A DNA stretch of 39,990 nt from positions 1 through 39,990 of the IMG/VR virus record IMGVR_UViG_3300032225_000555, one strand, 5' to 3'. How positions within the stretch are numbered: the first letter of the stretch is position 1; every line of letters begins with the position of its first letter. Below are positions 8,247 to 21,313 of the stretch, piece after piece. The notes beneath the pieces were generated by a model. That model was not told where the DNA came from. It searched no databases and saw only the letters and a program-made list of their open reading frames with translations. Made by a program: the position numbers and the translations under genes. Source of the DNA: a virus (Duplodnaviria > Caudoviricetes).

Positions 8247-9605
8247 TTATCCTAACGCCGTATGGCAAGTCGGGCAGAACTTGGCTGTCTTCGGTGCTGG
8301 CATACGACACGATGGACAGAACTGAGCAAGAGCCGCTATACCTAGCATAGAGGACGCTCCCTCCATTAAGTCGGTCATCGCCCAAACTAGAGCGTCCAGA
8401 CGATCCGGAGAGAAGTCGGATAGAGGAGTGTAGTTTGTCATCTGGTCTTCGAGTTGAGCGAACGATCCGACATGGTGAGCTCGATTCTGTTCGTAGAGCG
8501 AGGCTACTGGTTCGGCTCGGAGAAGTTTGCCTCGGGTTGCCGTAACTTTCTTGTAAGGGATTAGCGGGTCAACTTGTCGGAGGAGCGATTCAATCATGTC
8601 GCCTCCGTTGTTGCCTTCACCGATAATGCGATCCGCTTTCCAGCGATAATACGCCTCGACTGCTTTCCTAGCCCAAGCGTCCGGTCCTGCTCTGAGGCTT
8701 ACGTCTTCGAGGATGTAGTAATGTCCGTCGCTCGTCACTCCAGCGACCACGATACCGGTTTCGTCCGAGTCCGGCTTAGAGGTTACAGCCGGGTCAATCG
8801 CAACTACAATCCTGATTAGAGGAGGACACTCTTGAACCCGGGTTTCGTCTAGTAGAGAGTTCGTCCATAGAGCTCCGTCCACCTCGTCGATAATCTCGCC
8901 GTAGAGTTCTTGGCGTCCTAGTCGAGTTCCTTCGTATCGGAGTTTGAGGTCTGCTAGAGCCGTTGGAGCGAGGTTGTTGGCATTGTCGAAAGTCGATCCT
9001 CGGGTGACGGCGACAGTTCCGTCAGGTCGATTGGCTAGGGAGCGTATGAGGCTAGTTGGTCGAGGAGTTGTAGTGACGATGATACGAGGTTTGTCGCCTA
9101 GTCGTAGACCGAACTGGAGTTGGTCCCAAGCGTCCGTGTAGCGATAGGCCGCTAACTCGTCGCACCAAGCTCCGTGATGTTGAGGACCTCGAAAGCGGTC
9201 CGGCTTGTCGGCAGAGAAGAGCTTTATTCGAGATCCGTTGTTGAGAAGGATTTCTCCAAGCGACCTATTCCAGTCTTTGAGCATTTTGTATCTTCGGAGG
9301 ACGTTGAGAATGCCAGACTCTCCCTCGGCACAGGTATCTCTAGCGTCAGCGTAAGTTGGAGCGACGATTGCCCATCTAGTACCCGGAGAGGAGATGGCTT
9401 GGTCTGCGAGCCACTCGGCCGCCGTCCTAGTCTTACCTGCTCCTCGTCCAGCCAGATACAGCCAGACGTTCCAATCGCCTTCGGGTGCTAACTGCTCTTG
9501 ACGAGCTTGTTCAGCCTTCCAACGATAGCGGCTTGCTCGAATCCACTGTGCTGAGTAGTCCAATGATTCTTTCGATGTCTTCGTTGTAGTCGTAGTTTCC
9601 GTCAT
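8247..9605 (-). CDS. terL: Terminase large subunit
   Basis: Walker A GRGAGKT, Walker B AWCDE, TTTP, RNase H-like AIDPA...DRLDA; true start may be TTG ~9563. Confidence 0.95.
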   Translation of the reverse strand: MTETTTTTKTSKESLDYSAQWIRASRYRWKAEQARQEQLAPEGDWNVWLYLAGRGAGKTRTAAEWLADQAISSPGTRWAIVAPTYADARDTCAEGESGILNVLRRYKMLKDWNRSLGEILLNNGSRIKLFSADKPDRFRGPQHHGAWCDELAAYRYTDAWDQLQFGLRLGDKPRIIVTTTPRPTSLIRSLANRPDGTVAVTRGSTFDNANNLAPTALADLKLRYEGTRLGRQELYGEIIDEVDGALWTNSLLDETRVQECPPLIRIVVAIDPAVTSKPDSDETGIVVAGVTSDGHYYILEDVSLRAGPDAWARKAVEAYYRWKADRIIGEGNNGGDMIESLLRQVDPLIPYKKVTATRGKLLRAEPVASLYEQNRAHHVGSFAQLEDQMTNYTPLSDFSPDRLDALVWAMTDLMEGASSMLGIAALAQFCPSCRMPAPKTAKFCPTCHTALG

Positions 9606-9966
9606 AGTTCACCACCTCTGCTTGAACCTTAGTTGGAGCCTCAAGTCCGAGGAGTTTCGCTCGACGATCCATTACCTTCAGGACGACTTCGGCGGCTCTC
9701 TTATCCCGGTCTACGATTGCTGGAGTCCAGAACGCTCTCTGAATCCTGTCGAGCCGATCGAGTTCAAGATCCCTAATCTCGTCTACGCTTTCACGTTGAA
9801 CCCGGGACACTACTCTCGCATACGCTTTCTGAGCTCCAGAGGCGTTAGCGTAACCAACGGCTACTGCGATACGTTCCCAAGTTTCTCCGGATCTCCTCAA
9901 CTCGAGGACCTTGTTCTCTTTATCGAACTGCTCGGGAGGGACAGACTTTCGTTTCTTTGTCGCCAC
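9511..9966 (-). CDS. terS: Terminase small subunit (HTH)
   Basis: Directly upstream of and overlapping TerL; HTH (ELRRSGETWERIA) and RRAKLLGL motif. Confidence 0.8.
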   Translation of the reverse strand: MATKKRKSVPPEQFDKENKVLELRRSGETWERIAVAVGYANASGAQKAYARVVSRVQRESVDEIRDLELDRLDRIQRAFWTPAIVDRDKRAAEVVLKVMDRRAKLLGLEAPTKVQAEVVNYDGNYDYNEDIERIIGLLSTVDSSKPLSLEG

Positions 9967-9971
9967 TATGG

Positions 9972-10514
9972 TTATCCTAACTCTCGGGATAAATAGTATC
10001 GTATCTCGGCGACGAGCTCGGACGTTGGCTTACTGCCGTCTAGGACGATAGCGTTCCAACGTTCAGCGAGGTTGCGATGTTTAGTTTGTCTGCCTAGTAT
10101 CCAACTCGGGTTTTGAGTTGCGAGGGAGAAGGCTCTGGCTCGGAGGATACGTCGTTCTTGAGCGACTCGAGGATCGGTGTTGAGGTGGAAGACGAGGGTT
10201 GTTCCGGCTCGTTTGGCTAGTTTGATAAATCGGTCGTTCGCTAGTCTGTCGCCTTCAGCAATAACGAGTCCTTCGATGCCTTCCTCGTACCAGTCGGAAA
10301 TCGGGTTTATAGCCGCCTGACCTAAAGTGTCTGTCCCGCTAAATGGAACTCGAGTCCAACCGAGTTGTAGAGCTTTGCCGTAAGGGGAGTTATAGGTCGT
10401 GTGTTTGACCGGGTGTAGTTCTAACGTGAGTTGAGTCCAAGGTTGGATTAGCTCTGCGATGAGAGTCGACTTTCCAGCACCTGGCTCGCCTAAAAGAACG
10501 AGAGTTGTAGTCAT
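9972..10514 (-). CDS. P-loop kinase, 5-hydroxymethyluracil DNA kinase-like
   Basis: GEPGAGKST Walker A plus GTDTL and EGDRL motifs of the phage hmU-DNA kinase family; in operon with the amino-acid:DNA transferase. Confidence 0.75.
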   Translation of the reverse strand: MTTTLVLLGEPGAGKSTLIAELIQPWTQLTLELHPVKHTTYNSPYGKALQLGWTRVPFSGTDTLGQAAINPISDWYEEGIEGLVIAEGDRLANDRFIKLAKRAGTTLVFHLNTDPRVAQERRILRARAFSLATQNPSWILGRQTKHRNLAERWNAIVLDGSKPTSELVAEIRYYLSRELG

Positions 10515-10532
10515 GTTTAGCCTTTGACTTGT

Positions 10533-10769
10533 TTAGAGGATTTGGAGGACGTTGACGTACGCCTGTTCTGCCTCTACTACTAAGTCTAACTCTTCTTGTG
10601 TTGCTTTCAAGTCAGCGACAGGAACATCGTTAGTACTCTCAACGTAAGCTTCGAGGATCCGTAGAGCGTCCTCCTCCGACTTGGCTTGAATCGTATAGTT
10701 CACTCCGTAAGCGAGGACGTAAGTTTTTACGCCAATACCGAGAGTTGTGGTCTTCTTGCGTTTAGCCAT
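10533..10769 (-). CDS. Hypothetical protein
   Basis: 78 aa, overlaps the upstream ORF stop; YTIQAKSEEDAL motif. Confidence 0.65.
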   Translation of the reverse strand: MAKRKKTTTLGIGVKTYVLAYGVNYTIQAKSEEDALRILEAYVESTNDVPVADLKATQEELDLVVEAEQAYVNVLQIL

Positions 10770-10980
10770 TTCTTCTTTTTCTTTCTTCTGGTTGGAATCC
10801 GAATCGTTGTTCGGGTAGCGGATCGTTGTTGGCTTGCTCGATTTGAGAGGTCAGCGTCCCGAGGTCTTCTCTCCTCGGAAGGCATTTGTGTATTCTTCGC
10901 CACTCTCTAATCAACTTGAGTTCGTCGTCCCTGTTGACCTCGATTGACGCTCCACAAGAGCAAGTTTCTTCTATCATCAT
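10762..10980 (-). CDS. Small Cys/His zinc-binding hypothetical protein
   Basis: ETCSCGA...WRRIHKC; ATGA-coupled to the FAD oxidoreductase gene. Confidence 0.65.
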   Translation of the reverse strand: MMIEETCSCGASIEVNRDDELKLIREWRRIHKCLPRREDLGTLTSQIEQANNDPLPEQRFGFQPEERKRRNG

Positions 10981-11792
10981 GTAAGGGAGCGTAGCCAGTT
11001 CTCGATTACGGCTGGAGTGATGGCGTATCCCGATCTTGCAAGGTTGCCGATTGAGGTGAACTTATTGCCAAACTCTGGAAGAGTCGGTTCGTTTCCTTTC
11101 ACTCTGGCTCGTATGCCTGTAAGTATTTGCCAAGTTGCTCCCGGTTGGACGAGGTTGGCTTGTTCGGCGGCCTCGAGCATCTCTTCGACTCCTTTGATGG
11201 CGTCTGCCTCGGTTTTGGCGACACTTGAGCCTAGTCGGATTTCGCCGTGATTGTCGGCAATCGTAATCGTGTGGTACGGACGTATGTGATGGATACGGAG
11301 CGGTCCGTGGTCGAGGACGGCGTTCGTCGAGTAGAGGGTTGCTCCCCAAAGGTCTTCGTGTTGGACGGAAAGGTCCCCTCCGTAAGCTCCAGTTGCGTTC
11401 AGGATTGCATCGAACTCGTAAGTGTCTTCTCTAGTTACGATTCGGTTGCCTTCGATAAAGAAGACTTGCTCCTCGATGTCCGGGTTGACGAGGCTTTTCT
11501 CCGGGTCGACCAACCACCAGTCCTTTTGAGTTTTCACCTCCGGGTTACGCCAATGCGACGTGAAAGCGTATTGAGTTACGTCTGCTCCCCATTTCTCGTA
11601 CCAACGCCAAGACTGCTCGATAGTTCCTCGTAACTCTGGCTTGAACCATTGAGGACGTATTGTTGCTAAAGCACATCTCGAGGCGGCTCTTCCGGGAGCG
11701 TGGTCGAAGACGACTACTTCGTGACCGAGTTCTCTGCCGATTCTTGCTGTTGCGGATCCTGCGATGCCTGACCCGATTATGCCTATTCTCAT
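10977..11792 (-). CDS. FAD-dependent oxidoreductase, D-amino-acid/glycine oxidase (DAO/ThiO) family
   Basis: GIIGSGIAG Rossmann motif, ASRCALA, ATGA, GIRAR, GNLARSGYAITPA. Confidence 0.85.
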   Translation of the reverse strand: MRIGIIGSGIAGSATARIGRELGHEVVVFDHAPGRAASRCALATIRPQWFKPELRGTIEQSWRWYEKWGADVTQYAFTSHWRNPEVKTQKDWWLVDPEKSLVNPDIEEQVFFIEGNRIVTREDTYEFDAILNATGAYGGDLSVQHEDLWGATLYSTNAVLDHGPLRIHHIRPYHTITIADNHGEIRLGSSVAKTEADAIKGVEEMLEAAEQANLVQPGATWQILTGIRARVKGNEPTLPEFGNKFTSIGNLARSGYAITPAVIENWLRSLT

Positions 11793-12694
11793 TTTGGACT
11801 CCTCACTAACAACTTACCTGTTTCTTTGAATACTCGCTTGCGAGGTTGGTCGACTCCAGTCCAGTCGTTCTTCTCTCCGAGGTAGTGGTGAGGGATTGCC
11901 CTGCTCCTCGCCTCGAACATCTGTTCGGCTAGAGGACTCGGACACTTGAGGAGGTTCTCCAACATAGCGTCTATGTCCATACCGAGATAGTAGTGACCTT
12001 CGGCGAGAGCGTATACGTCACACAACGACGTTTCAGCCTCTTCAATCTTGGCGTCGACTCCGAGGTCTGTGAGCCTGTTTAAGAGGTCGAGAGAGATTTG
12101 GTCGAGCTCGGCTACGTCTTCGGCTTTGTTGCCGTCTGGCAGGTTGTCGTATAGGAGAGCCAGTCCCTTTCTTGGACCTGAGGAGTGAGCGTGACCCATG
12201 TCTGACGCTTGAAGGGGAAGTCCGTTGACCTTCCAGAGCATTTCGGCAGTTTTGTATGATGCCCAACGTCCGTTTCCGTAGATGGACTCAAGAGCCTCAA
12301 CCACTCGATCCCACGATTGAGTCGGAGAGTCGGTGACTACGTATTTGCGAATCCAGTTCAATAGGCCGCCGTTGTTTTCGGCGATAGATACGAGTTCTCC
12401 GAGGTGGCGTTCCAACTTGGCAGGGACTCGATGAGCTCGGCGTTCCGTCCCGGTCGGTAACTTGAGTTGCTCGGCTTTCGGGATTGCTGGCTCTCGATGG
12501 TTTTCGAAGACTTGGAGCGTTGAGTTCATGTTGTAGTAAGCGACGTAAAGGAACGTCAACCAGACTGCTTGCTCCGAGTCGAGCTCTAGGATTTGACCGA
12601 ACTCTTTGAGGCAGGGATAAACGTCATCTATCTCGTTCGAGGCGACGGACTCGGAGTGGAAGAGAGCATACGTCTTCCAATCTAGTTGCGTCAT
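11789..12694 (-). CDS. Amino-acid:DNA transferase (aGPT-PPlase clade 2, HhH-glycosylase-like fold)
   Basis: EIDDVY, GTERRAHR, GNGRWASYKTAEM, SSGPRKGL, ETSLCD, HYYLGMDI motifs. Confidence 0.8.
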   Translation of the reverse strand: MTQLDWKTYALFHSESVASNEIDDVYPCLKEFGQILELDSEQAVWLTFLYVAYYNMNSTLQVFENHREPAIPKAEQLKLPTGTERRAHRVPAKLERHLGELVSIAENNGGLLNWIRKYVVTDSPTQSWDRVVEALESIYGNGRWASYKTAEMLWKVNGLPLQASDMGHAHSSGPRKGLALLYDNLPDGNKAEDVAELDQISLDLLNRLTDLGVDAKIEEAETSLCDVYALAEGHYYLGMDIDAMLENLLKCPSPLAEQMFEARSRAIPHHYLGEKNDWTGVDQPRKRVFKETGKLLVRSPK

Positions 12695-13554
12695 TTGACT
12701 TTAGAGGATCCTGATTTGAGATCCTCAGCCATACCATCTTCTCGTTTAGTTCTCGACTCTTTGGCCTTAGCAGTTTCGACAGCGTAAGTGAAACAATCCT
12801 TCATACCTCGGAGAGCGTAATACACGACCGAATAGCGATAAGCTCCCTCTTTGCGAGGAGTCATTGGAGTTACTCCGTGGACGTATTTATACCCGGGGAA
12901 GAAACTTACCCAACCATCTCGAGCCGTGAACGTGAAGTCGTATTCGGGGAAGTGGAGATAGCCGCCAGCCATGTCCCTTCGGATTACTGGCATCGCTGAC
13001 CAAGTCGCAAAGTTGAATCCGTCACGGTGATACGGAAGGGTTGAAGACTTGTTGACGACTCCCGAAGTCCAAAGAGCGTCGTCCGTCATACGCCACTCGT
13101 TCTCGAGTCCAGCCTTAGATAGATTATCGACATCATGTTCGTAGAGATCCGGAGCAAACTCTCTGAGCATCTTGGCAAACTTCTCGGCAAACTTGATTAG
13201 TACAGCGTGTTCGTCAGGTTGCTCGTTGGCGAGAGTTGTTGGACGGCAAGACTCTCGACGTTGAAATACCTTTCGTGGAGCCATACCGAAAGTTCGGCTA
13301 ATGTTCTTGAGTCCTGTTGATTGTCGGATTGTCGATCCGTACTTTATGTTGAGGACGGCCGCTCGGAGCAGAGCTACTTCCTCTTCCATAGGAAAGCAAG
13401 CGAAGATTGGTTCTTCCGTTTCATCGTCAATCCAGATACCCGGTCCGTGTAACTCCGGGTCGATACTTGGAACCTCAGTACCGACTAGCTCGGTAGCCTC
13501 GTCTTCCGTTAAAACTCTCTTGACTCTAATGATTGGAAGGTCACTCAGTTTCAC
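12691..13554 (-). CDS. TET/JBP-family 2-oxoglutarate/Fe(II) dioxygenase
   Basis: TSGVVN...YHRD (HxD), GGYLHFPEY, VHGVTP (distal His), RYSVVYY (2OG-binding Arg). Confidence 0.85.
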   Translation of the reverse strand: MKLSDLPIIRVKRVLTEDEATELVGTEVPSIDPELHGPGIWIDDETEEPIFACFPMEEEVALLRAAVLNIKYGSTIRQSTGLKNISRTFGMAPRKVFQRRESCRPTTLANEQPDEHAVLIKFAEKFAKMLREFAPDLYEHDVDNLSKAGLENEWRMTDDALWTSGVVNKSSTLPYHRDGFNFATWSAMPVIRRDMAGGYLHFPEYDFTFTARDGWVSFFPGYKYVHGVTPMTPRKEGAYRYSVVYYALRGMKDCFTYAVETAKAKESRTKREDGMAEDLKSGSSKVK

Positions 13555-14209
13555 TTGGTGCTTGCTCCTTATACTCGGTTTCTAAAAGATGAACTATTGC
13601 GTCAGCGTTGGAAGTGATGTTGTTTTTGTTTCGGTAATCCAACAACTTTTCCATTAGCCAGATGTAAGTGGCGTTCGGGTAATCGGCTATCAACATACGA
13701 GTTGCTTTTTGAGCGTAACGCTCGGCATACTCCTCGAGGCTAGGGATTGTTAGAGTTCCACTCTGACCTGTTTCGCCGGTCTTGACCTCGCTGTAAGAGC
13801 TTACAGTTGGAGCAACAGACTCCTCGAGTAACGCTCTCAGGTCGTCAAGATCGGTCTGCTCGTATCCAGAGCCGTCCAAGTCTGGAATTGAAGACAACAA
13901 CTCGAGAAGTTTCTCATTATCGTATTCTCCAAGATCGGAAGAGCGATTGTCGATGGCTACTATCTTGCCAGCCGTTTCCTCGTCAACGTCGACAAAAGTA
14001 ACGTCGATTGTTTCCCAACCTAGCTCTACGGCCGCTTGGAACGTATGGTTACCAGCAAGAATCTCCCGAGTGCGAGAGTTCACGGTGATTGGCTTGTATT
14101 GACCATACGTTTTGAGCGACTCGGCAATAACTTTTACATTGCCTTTTCTTGGATTGTTGGCGTACGGCTTGAGATCCGTAACGGCAACTGATTCGATTTT
14201 CAGACTCAT
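13541..14209 (-). CDS. ParB/Srx N-terminal-domain protein
   Basis: LKPYANNPR, SLKTYGQYKPI, ILAGNHT, IDNRSSDL; no methylase domain fused. Confidence 0.85.
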   Translation of the reverse strand: MSLKIESVAVTDLKPYANNPRKGNVKVIAESLKTYGQYKPITVNSRTREILAGNHTFQAAVELGWETIDVTFVDVDEETAGKIVAIDNRSSDLGEYDNEKLLELLSSIPDLDGSGYEQTDLDDLRALLEESVAPTVSSYSEVKTGETGQSGTLTIPSLEEYAERYAQKATRMLIADYPNATYIWLMEKLLDYRNKNNITSNADAIVHLLETEYKEQAPSETE

Positions 14210-14653: not shown

Positions 14654-15859
14654 TTATTCGCTTTCTTTTATTAGTTGTTTTGGTAACAGAATCCGTAATG
14701 CGATTTCTGCTTGTTGCGGAACCACGCCGTTGCCAGCGAGTTTCAACTCTTCGTTTCTGGTCAATCCACAATCGGTTATCCAACCCTCCGGGAGTCCCAT
14801 CATCCATTCCGTAAAGACGCTTGAAAGTCTGTGAGCTCCGTCTTTGCCGTCTGGCTTGGTTGGTGCTGGTGCTGGTCGACCAAGGACGAACTCCCAACGC
14901 TTGATTGCTGGCTCGTACTTTCCCCAAATCTGAGGATTGTCTACTCCGGATCTTGCGATGTTCGTAAGAGCAACTTGATTGCCGTTGGCGATACGCTCTT
15001 CAGCCGTGATGGTCGTATCTTGTTTAGTTCCCTCCGAGGCTAGAGGAGTCGGCAGAACGTATACGTCGCTCGCAAGAGTCGAGTAACGTTTCGTGTTGTG
15101 TCCTGTGTTCTTGGCGTCGTCGACCAACGGAGTTGAAAGCAACACTATGTCCTCTCGAAGATTGCCTGTCGTGCTACGGACTGAGCCTCCCTCAACTCCA
15201 CGCCTCAACTGACGCTCCAAAGCCTCCCCGGTCCTTGCTGGTAAAGAGTCCATAGTGTTTGGAGTTGGTAAGAGATTGGCGGCTATCAAGTCTTCAACGA
15301 ACTCAGCCGGATTAGCGTTACTGTTTTTCCTAAACTCTGGTGAACGGCCGCTCAATGCCGTTGTCAAAGTTCCGAACAATTCGATACCCTCCTGCTCCAA
15401 ACGAATTGCCACGCCAAGACTTGCTCCGGGCATTCCTTTAGCTCGACCCTCAATGTAGTCTTCTCGCCTTTGAAGATAGTCGTCCAAGTCTTCGTCGTGA
15501 TTACGAATGTGACCAACAGTTGGAGTTGGCAAGTTGATTAGGTCGACAATCTGGTCCCGGAGCATCACGTAATGACCCTTCGCCTCTTTGACTTTCGCCG
15601 AGACCGCTCCACCATCTCCCTCGACTCCCATTGGAGTCATAAGTAGTTTGACGTTAGAACTCTCTTGAGGCGACGATGAAGATCCGTTCCCTGCGATGCG
15701 GAGCTCCTGCGTCGGAAGCTCGTACGCTTGTCCACCTAGCGTCATACCCGAGGGTGACCAAGTCCCCGAGAACAGCTCCAAGTGCTCGCAATACAGGCTC
15801 TGTATCGGTTTCTCCCATACAGAACGGGCATCGTTCCAAATCGCTATTGGCTTTAGCAT
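14654..15859 (-). CDS. C5-cytosine methyltransferase C-terminal subunit (motifs IX-X) with ~6 LPTP repeats
   Basis: RLSSVFTEWMMGLPEGW and LKLAGNGVVP; overlaps the N-terminal subunit gene by 206 nt in another frame. Confidence 0.75.
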   Translation of the reverse strand: MLKPIAIWNDARSVWEKPIQSLYCEHLELFSGTWSPSGMTLGGQAYELPTQELRIAGNGSSSSPQESSNVKLLMTPMGVEGDGGAVSAKVKEAKGHYVMLRDQIVDLINLPTPTVGHIRNHDEDLDDYLQRREDYIEGRAKGMPGASLGVAIRLEQEGIELFGTLTTALSGRSPEFRKNSNANPAEFVEDLIAANLLPTPNTMDSLPARTGEALERQLRRGVEGGSVRSTTGNLREDIVLLSTPLVDDAKNTGHNTKRYSTLASDVYVLPTPLASEGTKQDTTITAEERIANGNQVALTNIARSGVDNPQIWGKYEPAIKRWEFVLGRPAPAPTKPDGKDGAHRLSSVFTEWMMGLPEGWITDCGLTRNEELKLAGNGVVPQQAEIALRILLPKQLIKESE

Positions 15860-16211
15860 TAAGTATTCCTCTCACGTTTTCGATTACTACGAGTTTTGGT
15901 TGTAACGTTTCTATTGCTCGAGCGAACTCAGACCAGAGTCCACTCCTCGTCCCCTCTTTGAGTCCGGCTCTCTTACCAGCGACGCTCAAGTCTTGGCAAG
16001 GGAATCCGCCAGTCAGGATCTCGACAGGTTCAACCTGAGTGAAGTCGACCTCTCGGACATCGTGGTAGTTCGGTATCCCGGAGAAGTTCTTTTCTAAAAC
16101 CTTGGACGGAGCTTTATCAAACTCACAATGCCAGACGACTCTGCCACCTGTGACGTTAGTTACGGCTAGGTCTAGGCCGCCGTAGCCACTAAATAACGAT
16201 CCGATTCTCAT
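15654..16211 (-). CDS. C5-cytosine methyltransferase N-terminal catalytic subunit (motifs I-VIII)
   Basis: SLFSGYGG, GGFPCQ, ENV, RRER. Confidence 0.9.
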   Translation of the reverse strand: MRIGSLFSGYGGLDLAVTNVTGGRVVWHCEFDKAPSKVLEKNFSGIPNYHDVREVDFTQVEPVEILTGGFPCQDLSVAGKRAGLKEGTRSGLWSEFARAIETLQPKLVVIENVRGILNAKANSDLERCPFCMGETDTEPVLRALGAVLGDLVTLGYDARWTSVRASDAGAPHRRERIFIVASREF

Positions 16212-16702
16212 AGTTGTCTACGCAATCTGACGAAGTGTCCAACGATTGGAGTTGTCTCGAGAAAGTCTGCCTCGGCATCTGTGTAAGCGATTAGGACGCT
16301 CGGAGATCCGGCGGCTTGCCCTTGAGTTCCGTCTGGACGATAGAACGACACTCTCCCTTTGAGGAAGAGAATCCCGGTTGCTTTGCTCCAAACTTGGTCG
16401 AAGAAAGTCTTTGTTTCGGTTCTAGCAAATACCAACGCTAGTCCCCCCCCCGAGTGATTGGCTAGTCGATTGAGCCAGATGTCCATACCCGGACCATACG
16501 GCGGATTTAGCCAGACTCGTCCGTTCCAAGTCTGAGCAAGTCCGTCGTCCTCGATTGTGTAGTGGAGCTTGGCAGTACTCCAAGGTCGATTTATCGGTGA
16601 GCAAGGATCCAAGTCGAACTCCCCTAGAGCTCGGAGGAGGGAGGGAGGCGTAAGCCAGACATCCGTCTTTGATACTGAGGTTTCGCCGCCGAGATTAACC
16701 AT
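16208..16702 (-). CDS. Phage N6-adenine DNA methyltransferase (Dam-like)
   Basis: WLTP, FDLDPC, DGL, NPPY, ARTET. Confidence 0.88.
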   Translation of the reverse strand: MVNLGGETSVSKTDVWLTPPSLLRALGEFDLDPCSPINRPWSTAKLHYTIEDDGLAQTWNGRVWLNPPYGPGMDIWLNRLANHSGGGLALVFARTETKTFFDQVWSKATGILFLKGRVSFYRPDGTQGQAAGSPSVLIAYTDAEADFLETTPIVGHFVRLRRQL

Positions 16703-17366
16703 TAGAGTTGCTCCTCTGGTCTACGATGGCTGACCTGATTTCTTCCCCAAGAGCGTATGGAACCATTGAGCGAGTCTTAGCGTTGGAGCGTCCTTGAGTT
16801 CCTGTGCTTGAGCCTCGAGGAGCGGCTATGTGGCAATCCGATCCGTTGGCACAAGCAGGTCGAGGAGTCCAACCCGGGACTTCTCCCCAAAGGTCAGTTG
16901 GTTTCATCCGGTCGTCGCCGTATTGGCAATAAGTGATTGTTCGTCTAGGGAGGTCAGCGAGAGGAGGTAACTTTCGTAACATCCCTCTCGGGTTCTCGAT
17001 TAGGTATCCAAGTTTTGGAGCGAGGTCGTGTATGAGGTTGCGAACGTGAACTACGAGCTCTTGACTGAGGACGGCTCTATCGGTTCGAGGTTGAGGGAAA
17101 GATCCGCCACTAATCCAATGATGACCCATTGAGGCTACGGAGAACGCAGTACACGGAGGACTAGCCCAAACAAAGTCTGGTTGTCCGTAAGTTTTGATTA
17201 GGTATTCGGCAGTCAACTCGAGGATGTCGATGTTCTCGGTTGCGAAAAAGTCCGAGTCCAACTCGAAGGAGATTACGTTGTCGCCAGCGTCCTCGAAAGC
17301 TCGAGTTGATGAACCTGTGCCTGAGAAGAAATCAAAGACGAGGAGTGGAGTATCGGATTTGCCCAT
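16695..17366 (-). CDS. Short C5-cytosine methyltransferase-like protein
   Basis: DFFSGTGS (motif I), ASPPC (IV), IENP (VI), YCQYG...KPTDLW. Confidence 0.8.
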   Translation of the reverse strand: MGKSDTPLLVFDFFSGTGSSTRAFEDAGDNVISFELDSDFFATENIDILELTAEYLIKTYGQPDFVWASPPCTAFSVASMGHHWISGGSFPQPRTDRAVLSQELVVHVRNLIHDLAPKLGYLIENPRGMLRKLPPLADLPRRTITYCQYGDDRMKPTDLWGEVPGWTPRPACANGSDCHIAAPRGSSTGTQGRSNAKTRSMVPYALGEEIRSAIVDQRSNSNG

Positions 17367-19099: not shown

Positions 19100-20040
19100 T
19101 TTACGCTCAATCGAACGGATGGCTGACCAACCTTTACAGGTAGCTCCATGTTTTCGTCGACGTGAGTCTGGAGCAATCTGAGAATCTCGTCTGTGTCTGG
19201 AGTTTTACGTCCAGCGACCTCAGACCAAGAAACCTTTACTCCGTCCATCGTAACTCCAGCGAACCCTTCCAGAGCAGACTTGACGGCATCCTTTTCAGCC
19301 TCAAGGACCTTGAGAGCCTCGTTGACCTCGATGTAGCGTTTCGCCGCGTTGGAGGCGTTTTCGTCTACGATTGCCTGACCCGATAAGTCTTTCGGAATCC
19401 CTTTACAGAGGTCGCCGTAGAACGAGCAATACTTGGCACAGAAGGTAATCGGATCTCTCTCCGGGTCTGGAGCAGTTGTCCTGCCCTTTACGTCCTCGAG
19501 CCACGCCAGAGCTTGAAGAGCAACCTCTTCGCTATACGGCTCGGTGTGAACTACGATGTCGTTCTCCGTTCCATCTCTTGGAATACCGACAAGGGTTACG
19601 TTCTTGACGTGGAACCCGGCTTGAACTAGCAAGTAGCCGTAGACCTGAACTTGCCAACGTTTCTGTTGGCTCACGAACCAGTCGACGTTCTTGAGGGTGA
19701 TGGTCTTCCAGTCGACGACCTCTCCATAAAGCGGATCGAAGAAGTCGATTGTTGCTGGAGGTAGTCCCTCGATTTCGACTCGGTGTTCGAGCATTGGCAT
19801 ATGGTTCTCGTCCCGGTCCTCGTACTGAGTTAGGATAGCGGCCTCGATTGCCGTATGAATAGCCGTTCCCATAATCGCCGGGAGGGAGAGAGTTGAGTTC
19901 GTCTTCTTATCTCCCTGAGTCATGTGCCAGACTTTACGGCGACAATCTCCGAGAGCCGAAACTCCGATTGCTGTTTGCTTAGAACGAGCTCGGTCGCCGT
20001 CAACTTGACGGAGAGCGTTGATGAGTGTTGTCTTTTCCAT
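19096..20040 (-). CDS. Cas4/RecB-like PD-(D/E)XK exonuclease
   Basis: GVSALGDCRRK, GTAIH, D...DWKT, QVQVY, CxxxCxxxxxxC Fe-S ligands. Confidence 0.85.
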   Translation of the reverse strand: MEKTTLINALRQVDGDRARSKQTAIGVSALGDCRRKVWHMTQGDKKTNSTLSLPAIMGTAIHTAIEAAILTQYEDRDENHMPMLEHRVEIEGLPPATIDFFDPLYGEVVDWKTITLKNVDWFVSQQKRWQVQVYGYLLVQAGFHVKNVTLVGIPRDGTENDIVVHTEPYSEEVALQALAWLEDVKGRTTAPDPERDPITFCAKYCSFYGDLCKGIPKDLSGQAIVDENASNAAKRYIEVNEALKVLEAEKDAVKSALEGFAGVTMDGVKVSWSEVAGRKTPDTDEILRLLQTHVDENMELPVKVGQPSVRLSVK

Positions 20041-20471
20041 TAGTTGCTCCTATTGTTTATTGCTGGTAACGCTTGCTCTATGAGAGAGATTACAAGTCTG
20101 TGTGTGTCGCCACTCGAGTCGAAGGCAGGATCGGGAACTTTAGTGAGAGCAGGACTCGAGTCGAGGTATTGGACTAGAGAGATTGAATTGCCTCCGAGGT
20201 CGCTAATCGCTTTGAGGTGAGAGGGTTGAAATCCGATAACTAGGTCTGCCCAATCGACTAGGGATTTGGATAGAGCCGTTGAGCGATGAAAGTCTACTTT
20301 TGGATAGCCAGCCTCGACTAGAGCCAACCTCATTTTCTTAGACATAGGTTTATTGGCTTTGAGGTTGGTGGCCGCCGATTGAATAATCCAATCCGGGTGA
20401 AGTTGACGAGCCATTACTTCGGCCGCTGCGGATCGGTTGATGTTGCCAGTACAGACAAATAGGATCTTCAT
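20040..20471 (-). CDS. Low-molecular-weight protein tyrosine phosphatase / ArsC-like protein
   Basis: ILFVCTGNINRS (CX5R), WADLV, VPDP. Confidence 0.85.
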   Translation of the reverse strand: MKILFVCTGNINRSAAAEVMARQLHPDWIIQSAATNLKANKPMSKKMRLALVEAGYPKVDFHRSTALSKSLVDWADLVIGFQPSHLKAISDLGGNSISLVQYLDSSPALTKVPDPAFDSSGDTHRLVISLIEQALPAINNRSN

Positions 20472-21313
20472 TTCTTGAACTTCGTTTCTTGATAGCCGAG
20501 CTCGAGCTCGTGGATGTATGGACGAAACTCGGGGAACGTCCAGCCTCGAAATCCGTAGACTTGTTCGGCTGGAGTGAAGTCGGTAATGGCCGCTATGACG
20601 AAGAACTTACACCAACTGACTGCTGATTCTATTTCCATCCAGTTTGCTGTCCCGGGGAAATGGCGAAACTCGATTGTGCCGTTCTTGAAGAGAGAGCGAA
20701 GGTTCATCGCAGGTCGAGGAGCAATCTGAAACTGACGGCGACCAGACTTGGATAAAGGAGCGTGAGCCGAATAGAGCTCCTCCAGCGTCGAGGAGTTGAG
20801 GAGTTCTTGGTAACGAACCTCGGGGAGAGAGTAGTGATGGCTCACCAGTCTTCGCCTGTAACGTTTCATCGCTCCCTTGAGTTCCTCGGGATTTGGATAC
20901 TCCTCGGAGGTTGGTTTCGGGATTGGCTCAATCGTTTCGAAGACGAACCTCTCGTTGTATCGGAAGTACGTTGCGACTTGTTTGATAAGTTCAAGATCCT
21001 GTGCGAGTCCCGGGACGGCGACGTGGACGTGTAGATTACATCGATAGTTGATTGTCGGCTTGAGGAGGTCTGCTAGTTGACTAGCGATGTGAGCCTGTTC
21101 CATAGGAGTTTCGGTTGGACGAGTGTTGATTTCGCCTCCGAAGGAATAAGCTCCAGTCGGATCGTTGGCTCGTCCGTTGGAGTTGACGATGGTGTAGTCC
21201 TCGAAGTCCCAAGAGCCGAGAGTTTCGGGGATTGAGATACGTCTGTCTACATCTGCCCACTCAAGTTCTAGTCCAAAGGTCATACCCGAAACTTTATCGG
21301 TAGCCTCAGACAT
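20468..21313 (-). CDS. Amidoligase (COOH-NH2 ligase, glutamine-synthetase/GCS-like fold)
   Basis: TFGLELE, GGEINTRP, CNLHVHV, TIEFRHFPGT; start re-called at ATG 21313. Confidence 0.8.
   Translation of the reverse strand: MSEATDKVSGMTFGLELEWADVDRRISIPETLGSWDFEDYTIVNSNGRANDPTGAYSFGGEINTRPTETPMEQAHIASQLADLLKPTINYRCNLHVHVAVPGLAQDLELIKQVATYFRYNERFVFETIEPIPKPTSEEYPNPEELKGAMKRYRRRLVSHHYSLPEVRYQELLNSSTLEELYSAHAPLSKSGRRQFQIAPRPAMNLRSLFKNGTIEFRHFPGTANWMEIESAVSWCKFFVIAAITDFTPAEQVYGFRGWTFPEFRPYIHELELGYQETKFKK

Follow-up and report, generated by a model that had tools for sequence, protein, structure and literature searches.

How might a phage that encodes no recognisable enzyme for making 5-hydroxymethyluracil (5hmU) ahead of replication still hypermodify the thymine (T) of its DNA, and in which base would such a pathway end? 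The question is raised by the virus record IMGVR_UViG_3300032225_000555, analyzed here over its whole length (the window), a complete phage genome of 39,990 bp with direct terminal repeats. Its minus-strand operon at 9972..14209 encodes a ParB-like protein, a TET/JBP-type dioxygenase, an amino acid/amine:DNA transferase (AADT, aGPT-Pplase2), an FAD oxidase and a P-loop kinase. A sequence-only reading had proposed that these enzymes lead from T over 5hmU, phospho-5hmU and a glycyl adduct to 5-aminomethyluracil (5-aminomethyl-U). Folds and catalytic residues support this order of steps up to the oxidase, glycine is doubtful as the donor, and 5-aminomethyl-U stands as a predicted intermediate but is probably incomplete as an end point, as an amidoligase and a phosphatase located 6 kb upstream of the operon sit inside it in relatives. 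We tentatively propose a line of seven proteins that would modify T in finished DNA and likely end in an N-acylated 5-aminomethyluracil; still somewhat more tentatively, the ligase and its dedicated phosphatase may be an undescribed mobile capping module for DNA-base amines, which swaps with GNAT acetyltransferases in one and the same operon slot and here finishes a wholly post-replicative pathway with a non-glycine donor, its product being a new base.

In the proposed pathway, the dioxygenase, switched on by ParB, would very likely turn some T into 5hmU, and the kinase would, with equally high probability, convert this to 5-phosphomethyl-U. Cys225 of the AADT would then attack C6, the phosphate would be expelled and an amine added, a transfer that we regard as highly probable and the surest of the steps. 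The FAD oxidase would probably oxidise the N-Calpha bond, leaving 5-aminomethyl-U whatever amino acid had been added. Finally, and here our confidence is evenly balanced, the ligase would couple a carboxylic acid to the amine at the cost of ATP, where other phages acetylate with a GNAT, while the phosphatase would strip phosphate from the acyl group or from a by-product; as to the acid, one can only guess at glutamate or a phosphorylated hydroxy acid. The likely purpose would be to keep host nucleases off the genome when it is packaged. We infer both the reactions of these proteins and the end product.

All seven operon open reading frames (ORFs) named in the sequence-only reading were found in place on the minus strand, as are the main genes of the window. 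The order is ParB-like protein (222 amino acids (aa), 13541..14209), dioxygenase (287 aa, 12691..13554), AADT (301 aa, 11789..12694), FAD oxidase (271 aa, 10977..11792), a 72-aa ORF (10762..10980), a 78-aa ORF (10533..10769) and the kinase (180 aa, 9972..10514), followed by the terminase genes. The first six are joined by overlaps of 14, 4, 4, 4 and 8 nucleotides (nt), so the description as an overlap-coupled run holds for these, but the kinase starts after an 18-nt gap. Profile searches returned the expected families: ParB_N (PF02195, 3.3e-06), Tet_JBP (PF12851, 4.5e-08; 32.9 bits, slightly below the cut-off of 34.9), ADDT (PF18724, 1.2e-24), DAO (2e-10) and Ploopntkinase3 (PF18751, 1.2e-19). 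Single-sequence searches of the PDB gave weak matches only, and fold assignment needed profiles and models, with Foldseek as the one source of fold support.

Related loci were collected with three profiles: 72 loci from the oxidase scan, including near-duplicates and fragments, the best 80 of 91 dioxygenase loci and the best 80 of 99 ligase loci. The kinase was present in 66 of the 72 oxidase loci, the AADT in 64, the dioxygenase in 63 and ParB in 59, the misses falling mostly at contig ends; a thymidylate synthase-like gene was found in none of the 72. The two small ORFs were dropped as pathway members, being without family and not conserved: family searches gave nothing for the 72-aa ORF, whose homologues occur in 3/72 oxidase loci, all near kin, and for the 78-aa ORF no family was found either, neither of the two locus sets (72 oxidase, 80 dioxygenase) holding a homologue at E 1e-6. 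Both are probable accessory inserts.

Six-frame searches of the whole genome gave no match for thymidylate synthase (PF00303; the control matched 10/14), nor for dCMP deaminase or GNAT (PF00583), both with positive controls, and none for PaMx11 gp51, searched without a positive control. The sequence-only reading was thus right that these genes are missing, and no hidden dUMP hydroxymethylase came to light. As the genome is complete, the lack of thymidylate synthase, dCMP deaminase and gp51 matches argues against a pre-replicative route to 5hmU. The absence of a recognisable DNA polymerase was borne out as well, since general scans assigned no polymerase, primase or helicase family to the 64 main ORFs, though no dedicated profile search was made; one weak primase-labelled PHROG match falls on a C5-methyltransferase ORF. 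Searches of the genome for an amidotransferase, a pyridoxal phosphate (PLP) gene and a radical S-adenosylmethionine (SAM) gene found none. The genome therefore has neither the dUMP hydroxymethylase supply nor the GNAT or radical SAM/PLP finish of a PaMx11/M6-type pathway.

The dioxygenase carries the HxD..H..R motif already recognised in the sequence, and its residues H176 and D178 (HxD), H226 and R240 are each kept in 108/109 aligned sequences. It belongs to an actinophage clade, with 44–50% identity to Tonitrus gp3 and mycobacteriophage B4/B5 gp2, and extends into a C-terminal tail after Cys254; a tail past the last Cys marks the ParB-dependent dioxygenase subclass (PMC13229309). Together with the adjoining ParB and the lack of a conserved C5-methyltransferase neighbour, these are the traits of clade C1 T-dioxygenases, and conversion of T to 5hmU is predicted accordingly. 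O'Toole 2026 (PMC13229309) reported phage T-dioxygenases that are activated by ParB and convert T to 5hmU, up to ~35% in E. coli, and linked the ParB-dependent subclass to AADTs, kinases and amidotransferases. By analogy with that work, the ParB-like protein, which accompanies the dioxygenase in 76/80 dioxygenase loci and for which the sequence-only reading had no role, is likely its activator.

The kinase has the expected GTDTL (at 60) and EGDRL (at 87) motifs, and its Walker A and E87-G88 are common to M6 gp54 and PaMx11 gp49 in an alignment. A pairwise BLAST against M6 gp54 was not significant, though the motifs align, and the PF18751 match and the AADT-cluster context are present; it is predicted to be a 5-hmU DNA kinase.

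The AADT is assigned by profile and fold: its profile also matches the YuA enzyme 25qc at 2e-15, and its AlphaFold model (107 sequences, pLDDT 96.8) has PaMx11 gp46 as its only significant Foldseek match (TM 0.60). The catalytic Cys225, the metal-binding Glu221-Thr222 and Asp23 (Asp24 of YuA) are all present, and in an alignment of 126 sequences the window AADT keeps D23, E84, W144, K148, E221, T222, C225, Y235 and D240. In YuA, the glycine pocket consists of D24, E96, K159, K248, Y257 and D262, and K248 and Y257 placed in a diamine transferase switch its donor to glycine (PMC13458397). Five of the six pocket residues are kept in the window AADT, while the K248 position is taken by Asp226. The oxidase loci of this clade yielded 50 distinct AADTs, every one with this Asp, which the enzymes of Phelemich, MO526 and Tonitrus share; Lys stands there in 8/9 M6-like AADTs from ligase loci, and Gly or Ala in four close relatives without oxidase. 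The pocket, with D226 and Y235, is hence not that of the glycine:DNA transferases (K248 and Y257; M6 gp51, PaMx11 gp46, YuA), and, with D226, A229 and Y235, not that of the diamine:DNA transferases either (G227, H230 and D238; PhiW-14, SH-Ab 15599). Because the proven glycine determinant Lys248 is Asp226 here, glycine is doubtful as donor. A basic amino acid joined through its alpha-amine would fit the acidic pocket and Arg228 of the oxidase, and on balance we lean slightly towards a donor other than glycine, probably a basic amino acid. An amidotransferase feeding ammonia straight to the AADT was considered and dropped, since the loci concerned carry ViI-like (serine-type) AADTs.

For the FAD oxidase, the Pfam DAO match covers the N-terminal part only. 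In a Foldseek search with its AlphaFold model (70 sequences, pLDDT 94.8), PaMx11 gp47 gave the top three matches (TM 0.73–0.76), with E-values slightly better than those of glycine oxidases and a much closer length. With a short GR2 fold and gp47 as the nearest solved structure, the enzyme resembles the N-glycylthymine oxidase (gp47/NGTO) type. Residues W51, F52, P179, Y180 and R242 of gp47, for which base-cage and carboxylate-binding residues have been described, R242 as the proposed carboxylate binder (PMC11472151), correspond to W49, F50, P172, Y173 and R228, and the R242 equivalent is invariant in the aligned oxidases. The predicted activity of the oxidase is scission of the N-Calpha bond, after which 5-aminomethyl-U would remain.

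The last step would depend on two genes that the sequence-only reading had overlooked, an amidoligase (COOH-NH2 ligase; 20468..21313, minus strand, 281 aa counted from the ATG behind AAGAGG; PF12224 1.6e-05) and a low-molecular-weight phosphatase (20040..20471, minus strand, 143 aa; PF01451 5.8e-15), which overlap by 4 nt. The full Amidoligase_2 catalytic set (ExE, E, HxH, R, ExR) is present, with E16, E18, E61, H97, R200, E215 and R217 invariant, and a second classification (Atlas) agrees with PF12224; a sequence search found no related solved structure. We take the roles of these residues from the glutamine synthetase/GCS fold. The phosphatase has a Cx5RS loop (C7, R13, S14) and a DP general acid (D114-P115), invariant in 11 sequences. 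Both genes are orthologues of genes embedded in the operon of locus L060 (58% identity for the ligase, 62% for the phosphatase), and a near relative, L160, has the same displaced layout. Of the 72 oxidase loci, 11 have ligase and phosphatase placed between AADT and oxidase and 18 have a GNAT at that place, never both. Whole records, searched for 50 of the 72 loci, hold the ligase in nine, a GNAT in 13 (two of them weak) and both in none; the 16 complete oxidase records include four with the ligase, four with a GNAT and eight with neither. The ligase was found in 9/50 records with oxidase and, by the same profile, in 0/47 records of dioxygenase relatives picked for lacking it (Fisher p=0.003, a value inflated, like the other Fisher p-values, by the relatedness of the loci). 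On the AADT tree, GNAT loci and ligase loci are intermixed.

Several points weigh against the reading that we favor. The pathway has been built from gene comparison, models and literature, and the papers searched gave no assay of an enzyme from this clade. The AADT and the oxidase are each only ~20% identical to gp46 and gp47, respectively, and at this identity Q182, Y244 and K268 of gp47 align in sequence to T175, R230 and R253. The ligase pair is displaced by its 6 kb, the GNAT–ligase exclusion is not significant (Fisher p=0.055 for loci, 0.089 for records, the loci being related), neither tailoring gene occurs in 43/72 oxidase loci, and the association of ligase with oxidase weakens to 4/16 versus 0/11 (p=0.12) when complete records only are counted. 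Of the 80 ligase loci, 57 combine a class II glutamine amidotransferase and a ViI-like AADT, which usually signals the amidation of a carboxylate with ammonia, and CmoY acts on a carboxylate supplied by DNA (PMC12783734). At the first step, several ParB pairs of PMC13229309 gave 0–2% 5hmU, the dioxygenases of its Dataset S11 are, by eye, unlike the actinophage clade, and two motifs of this clade had no match in 12 supplements of that paper. As the Dataset S11 enzymes differ from the clade, T-oxidising activity here is an extrapolation.

The frequent lack of a tailoring gene raises the alternative that the donor is glycine after all, that the pathway stops at 5-aminomethyl-U and that the distant ligase pair is unrelated or a relic. 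Five of the six YuA pocket residues are kept, the Arg242 equivalent is invariant, and Phelemich, Reprobate and MO526, like the 43 loci, have no tailoring gene in the operon. However, K248 and Y257 together turn a diamine enzyme towards glycine and the former is Asp in all 50 distinct AADTs, and the ligase pair has kept its motifs and does not occur in the 47 relatives without oxidase; we consider this alternative unlikely.

Similarly unlikely, in our judgement, is a ligase that works on the adduct's carboxylate, giving an amide or a dipeptide, or that builds the donor of the AADT, with the oxidase performing other chemistry, e.g., on the side chain of lysine or a diamine, so that the product would not derive from 5-aminomethyl-U. 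The 80 ligase loci contain the phosphatase in 70, the AADT in 66, the kinase in 62, the amidotransferase in 57, the dioxygenase in 48, the oxidase in 10, and PLP and radical SAM genes in two; five hold the ligase alone in another context. The pair thus belongs to thymine hypermodification generally, mostly without oxidase. The amidotransferase link favors carboxylate amidation, the window ligase groups in its tree with amidotransferase-linked as well as oxidase-linked ligases, the acidic pocket residues D226 and D240 recall diamine transferases, and CmoY is a precedent for a ligase using a DNA carboxylate. Yet an amidotransferase is found neither in the window nor in any of the 10 oxidase-bearing ligase loci, an oxidase that holds the carboxylate by its Arg228 would be blocked once this group is amidated, and in 18 loci a GNAT is found with this type of AADT, which implies that the oxidase leaves an amine free. 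In the two loci with PLP decarboxylase and radical SAM genes, the ligase occurs with a glycine-type AADT, and the known product of AADT, PLP decarboxylase and radical SAM enzymes is an amine without carboxylate (PMC8989533). In each of the three contexts of the pair a primary amine is known or predicted (O-seryl-T, aminomethyl-U, aminoethyl-U), a point in favor of amine acylation, and we hold acylation to be clearly, though not overwhelmingly, the likelier activity.

Further ligase loci deserve mention in their own right. L165 (phage Simon, PQ683277.1, 6547-11076) belongs to an unannotated record of an M6-like phage genome, with a glycine-type AADT, oxidase, ligase, phosphatase and thymidylate synthase-like gene, and is a possible test case for the ligase. 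Many loci between L174 and L237 form a large uncharacterised cluster type of dioxygenase, amidotransferase, ligase, phosphatase, ViI-like AADT and kinase, with an optional glycosyltransferase (GT1 in 20, TET-associated in five) or 2-oxoglutarate oxygenase. L164, L171, L176, L178 and L240 have amidoligases of this clade, some in tandem, with no modification gene recognised nearby.

Our preferred reading also presumes a fully working operon. That it is only partly active, stopping at 5hmU or phospho-5hmU or acting at few sites in packaging or regulation instead of defence, seems improbable to us: many ParB-dependent pairs are weak or inactive (PMC13229309), the position before the terminase is fixed, and the genome avoids palindromes strongly, as though restriction still reached it, but the catalytic residues are all kept across diverse homologues, and the slot behind the dioxygenase is swapped (glycosyltransferase, PLP enzyme or oxidase) as expected in an arms race. 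Among 4-base palindromes in the window, the observed/expected counts are 0/62 for GCGC, 5/90 for CGCG, 6/85 for TGCA, 8/69 for ATAT and 23/110 for TTAA, with TCGA (380/409), CTAG and CCGG near expectation and TC/GA dinucleotide odds of 1.34; our guess is that the palindromes not avoided are sites protected by modification or methylation.

Least of all do we credit a dioxygenase working mainly on 5-methylcytosine (5mC) from phage C5-methyltransferases, as in TET43-type systems: such ORFs do lie at 14654-16211 and 16695-17366 and T-dioxygenases oxidise 5mC too, in vitro (PMC13229309), but these methyltransferases have homologues in only 1/72 oxidase and 3/80 dioxygenase loci and are no conserved neighbours, and characterised AADTs and kinases act on 5hmU (PMC8989533). 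An earlier study found enzymes of clades C1 and D inactive on 5mC (PMC8256090). The methyltransferase cluster upstream of the operon (14654-17366), unmentioned in the sequence-only reading, comprises a C5-methyltransferase split over overlapping ORFs (15654-16211 and 14654-15859), a Dam-like N6A enzyme (16208-16702) and the second C5-type ORF (16695-17366).

In the wider genome, family searches identified WhiB, portal, terminase, tail and RecT/RusA genes, pointing to a tailed phage whose host, judged by WhiB and cultured relatives, would be an actinobacterium. Directly behind the operon lies a probable terminase small subunit (9511..9966, minus strand), assigned by its place before the large subunit TerL (8247-9605) and a weak helix-turn-helix match, with a homologue in 42/72 oxidase loci. 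Three PHROG labels were rejected as inherited mis-annotations: 'queuine tRNA-ribosyltransferase' on the dioxygenase, 'RNase E' on the pre-TerL ORF, and 'terminase small subunit' on the kinase, a label that RefSeq likewise gives to the proven kinases gp54 and gp49.

From its gene order, the operon appears as one setting of a swappable cassette between the ParB-dioxygenase and the terminase: directly behind the dioxygenase, the 80 loci have an AADT (24), a TET-associated glycosyltransferase (19), a PLP enzyme (6) or genes without assigned family (31). Fifteen loci (L088, L095, L103, L116 and others) have there a gene pair of 309–337 aa and 149–189 aa without Pfam or NCBIfam family, and a 316–327 aa protein without family fills the tailoring slot in eight; both are candidates for undescribed 5hmU tailoring enzymes. 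L106, L111, L112, L123, L124 and L129 combine the ParB-dioxygenase with a ViI-like AADT, a PLP enzyme and a kinase, from which a post-replicative route to 5-NeOmdU, the ViI base, is predicted; L084, L119-L122 and L130, with ParB, dioxygenase, kinase and a slot without AADT, suggest phospho-5hmU as end product. Elsewhere, an Asp/Asn beta-hydroxylase (L132:5181-6266) or a SAM methyltransferase (L065:5947-6690) stands directly behind the AADT.

With host-made DNA, oxygen, ATP and small metabolites as its sole requirements, the pathway, if correct, could be reconstituted in vitro or in E. coli so as to place a primary amine or amide on the thymine of ordinary DNA. It draws attention to a clade of AADTs whose donor pocket is as yet uncharacterised, and provides a specific hypothesis for amidoligases, until now noted beside hypermodification genes without function. 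In Phelemich and Reprobate, phages of the harmless M. smegmatis, the five-gene core could be read directly, which makes the question of cluster B genes 1-5 testable.

As regards novelty, the sequence-only reading was right that no end product is described for the combination of dioxygenase, AADT and oxidase in the open literature, and the same holds for the ligase-phosphatase pair, subscription papers and figures lying outside both searches. Such neighbourhoods may, reportedly, already be described in Iyer et al. 2013. The pathway core, however, has been predicted in print (PMC8989533), its first step has been shown for related enzymes (PMC13229309), and cultured phages share the genes; what the present analysis adds is the change in the donor pocket, the proposed capping module at its displaced site and the cultured phages that could serve as tests. 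Genes 1-5 of mycobacteriophages Phelemich and Reprobate correspond, order included, to the five of the window, Microbacterium phage MO526 likewise has all five in order, with Kozie matching it gene for gene, and Rhodococcus phage Tonitrus, whose cluster was flagged in PMC11955845, lacks the oxidase; in all of these, as in the window, the genes precede the terminase. An amidoligase of this clade was not found in these five phages, and the open literature searched contains no report on their DNA chemistry.

Lee 2022 (PMC8989533) established the functions of kinase, AADT, oxidase and GNAT, inferred in-situ 5hmU for TET/JBP contigs without dUMP hydroxymethylase, and noted amidoligases and amidotransferases beside hypermodification genes without proposing a ligase role; the contigs of its Fig. 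2 resemble the window in the predicted in-situ 5hmU and the nearby amidoligases, and its text and supplement, taken without the figure, do not mention a phosphatase partner or GNAT exclusion. Compared with clade C1 5mYOX176/ParB176 (PMC13229309), the window shares the ParB directly upstream, the HxD..H..R motif, the tail behind the last Cys and the AADT and kinase neighbours, whereas the insertion of its dioxygenase is, by eye, shorter and different and goes with mycobacteriophage B gp2; the main text of that study does not go on to downstream products. CmoY of Synechococcus phage S-B43 (PMC12783734) likewise forms an amide on a modified DNA base at the expense of ATP, but is an unrelated ligase with an asparagine-synthetase fold and a cytosine substrate, to which DNA supplies the carboxylate. 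The 5-AcNmdU pathway of Pseudomonas phage PaMx11 (gp49 kinase, gp46 glycyltransferase, gp47 FAD oxidase, gp48 GNAT; PMC8989533, PMC11472151) shares with the window the kinase, AADT and oxidase folds, the AADT directly before the oxidase, and the catalytic Cys/Glu and Arg242. It differs in that 5hmU in the window would come from a ParB-dioxygenase instead of a dUMP hydroxymethylase, and in that the window, at ~20% identity and with no phage polymerase found, has Asp at the K248 position and a ligase-phosphatase pair in place of the GNAT.

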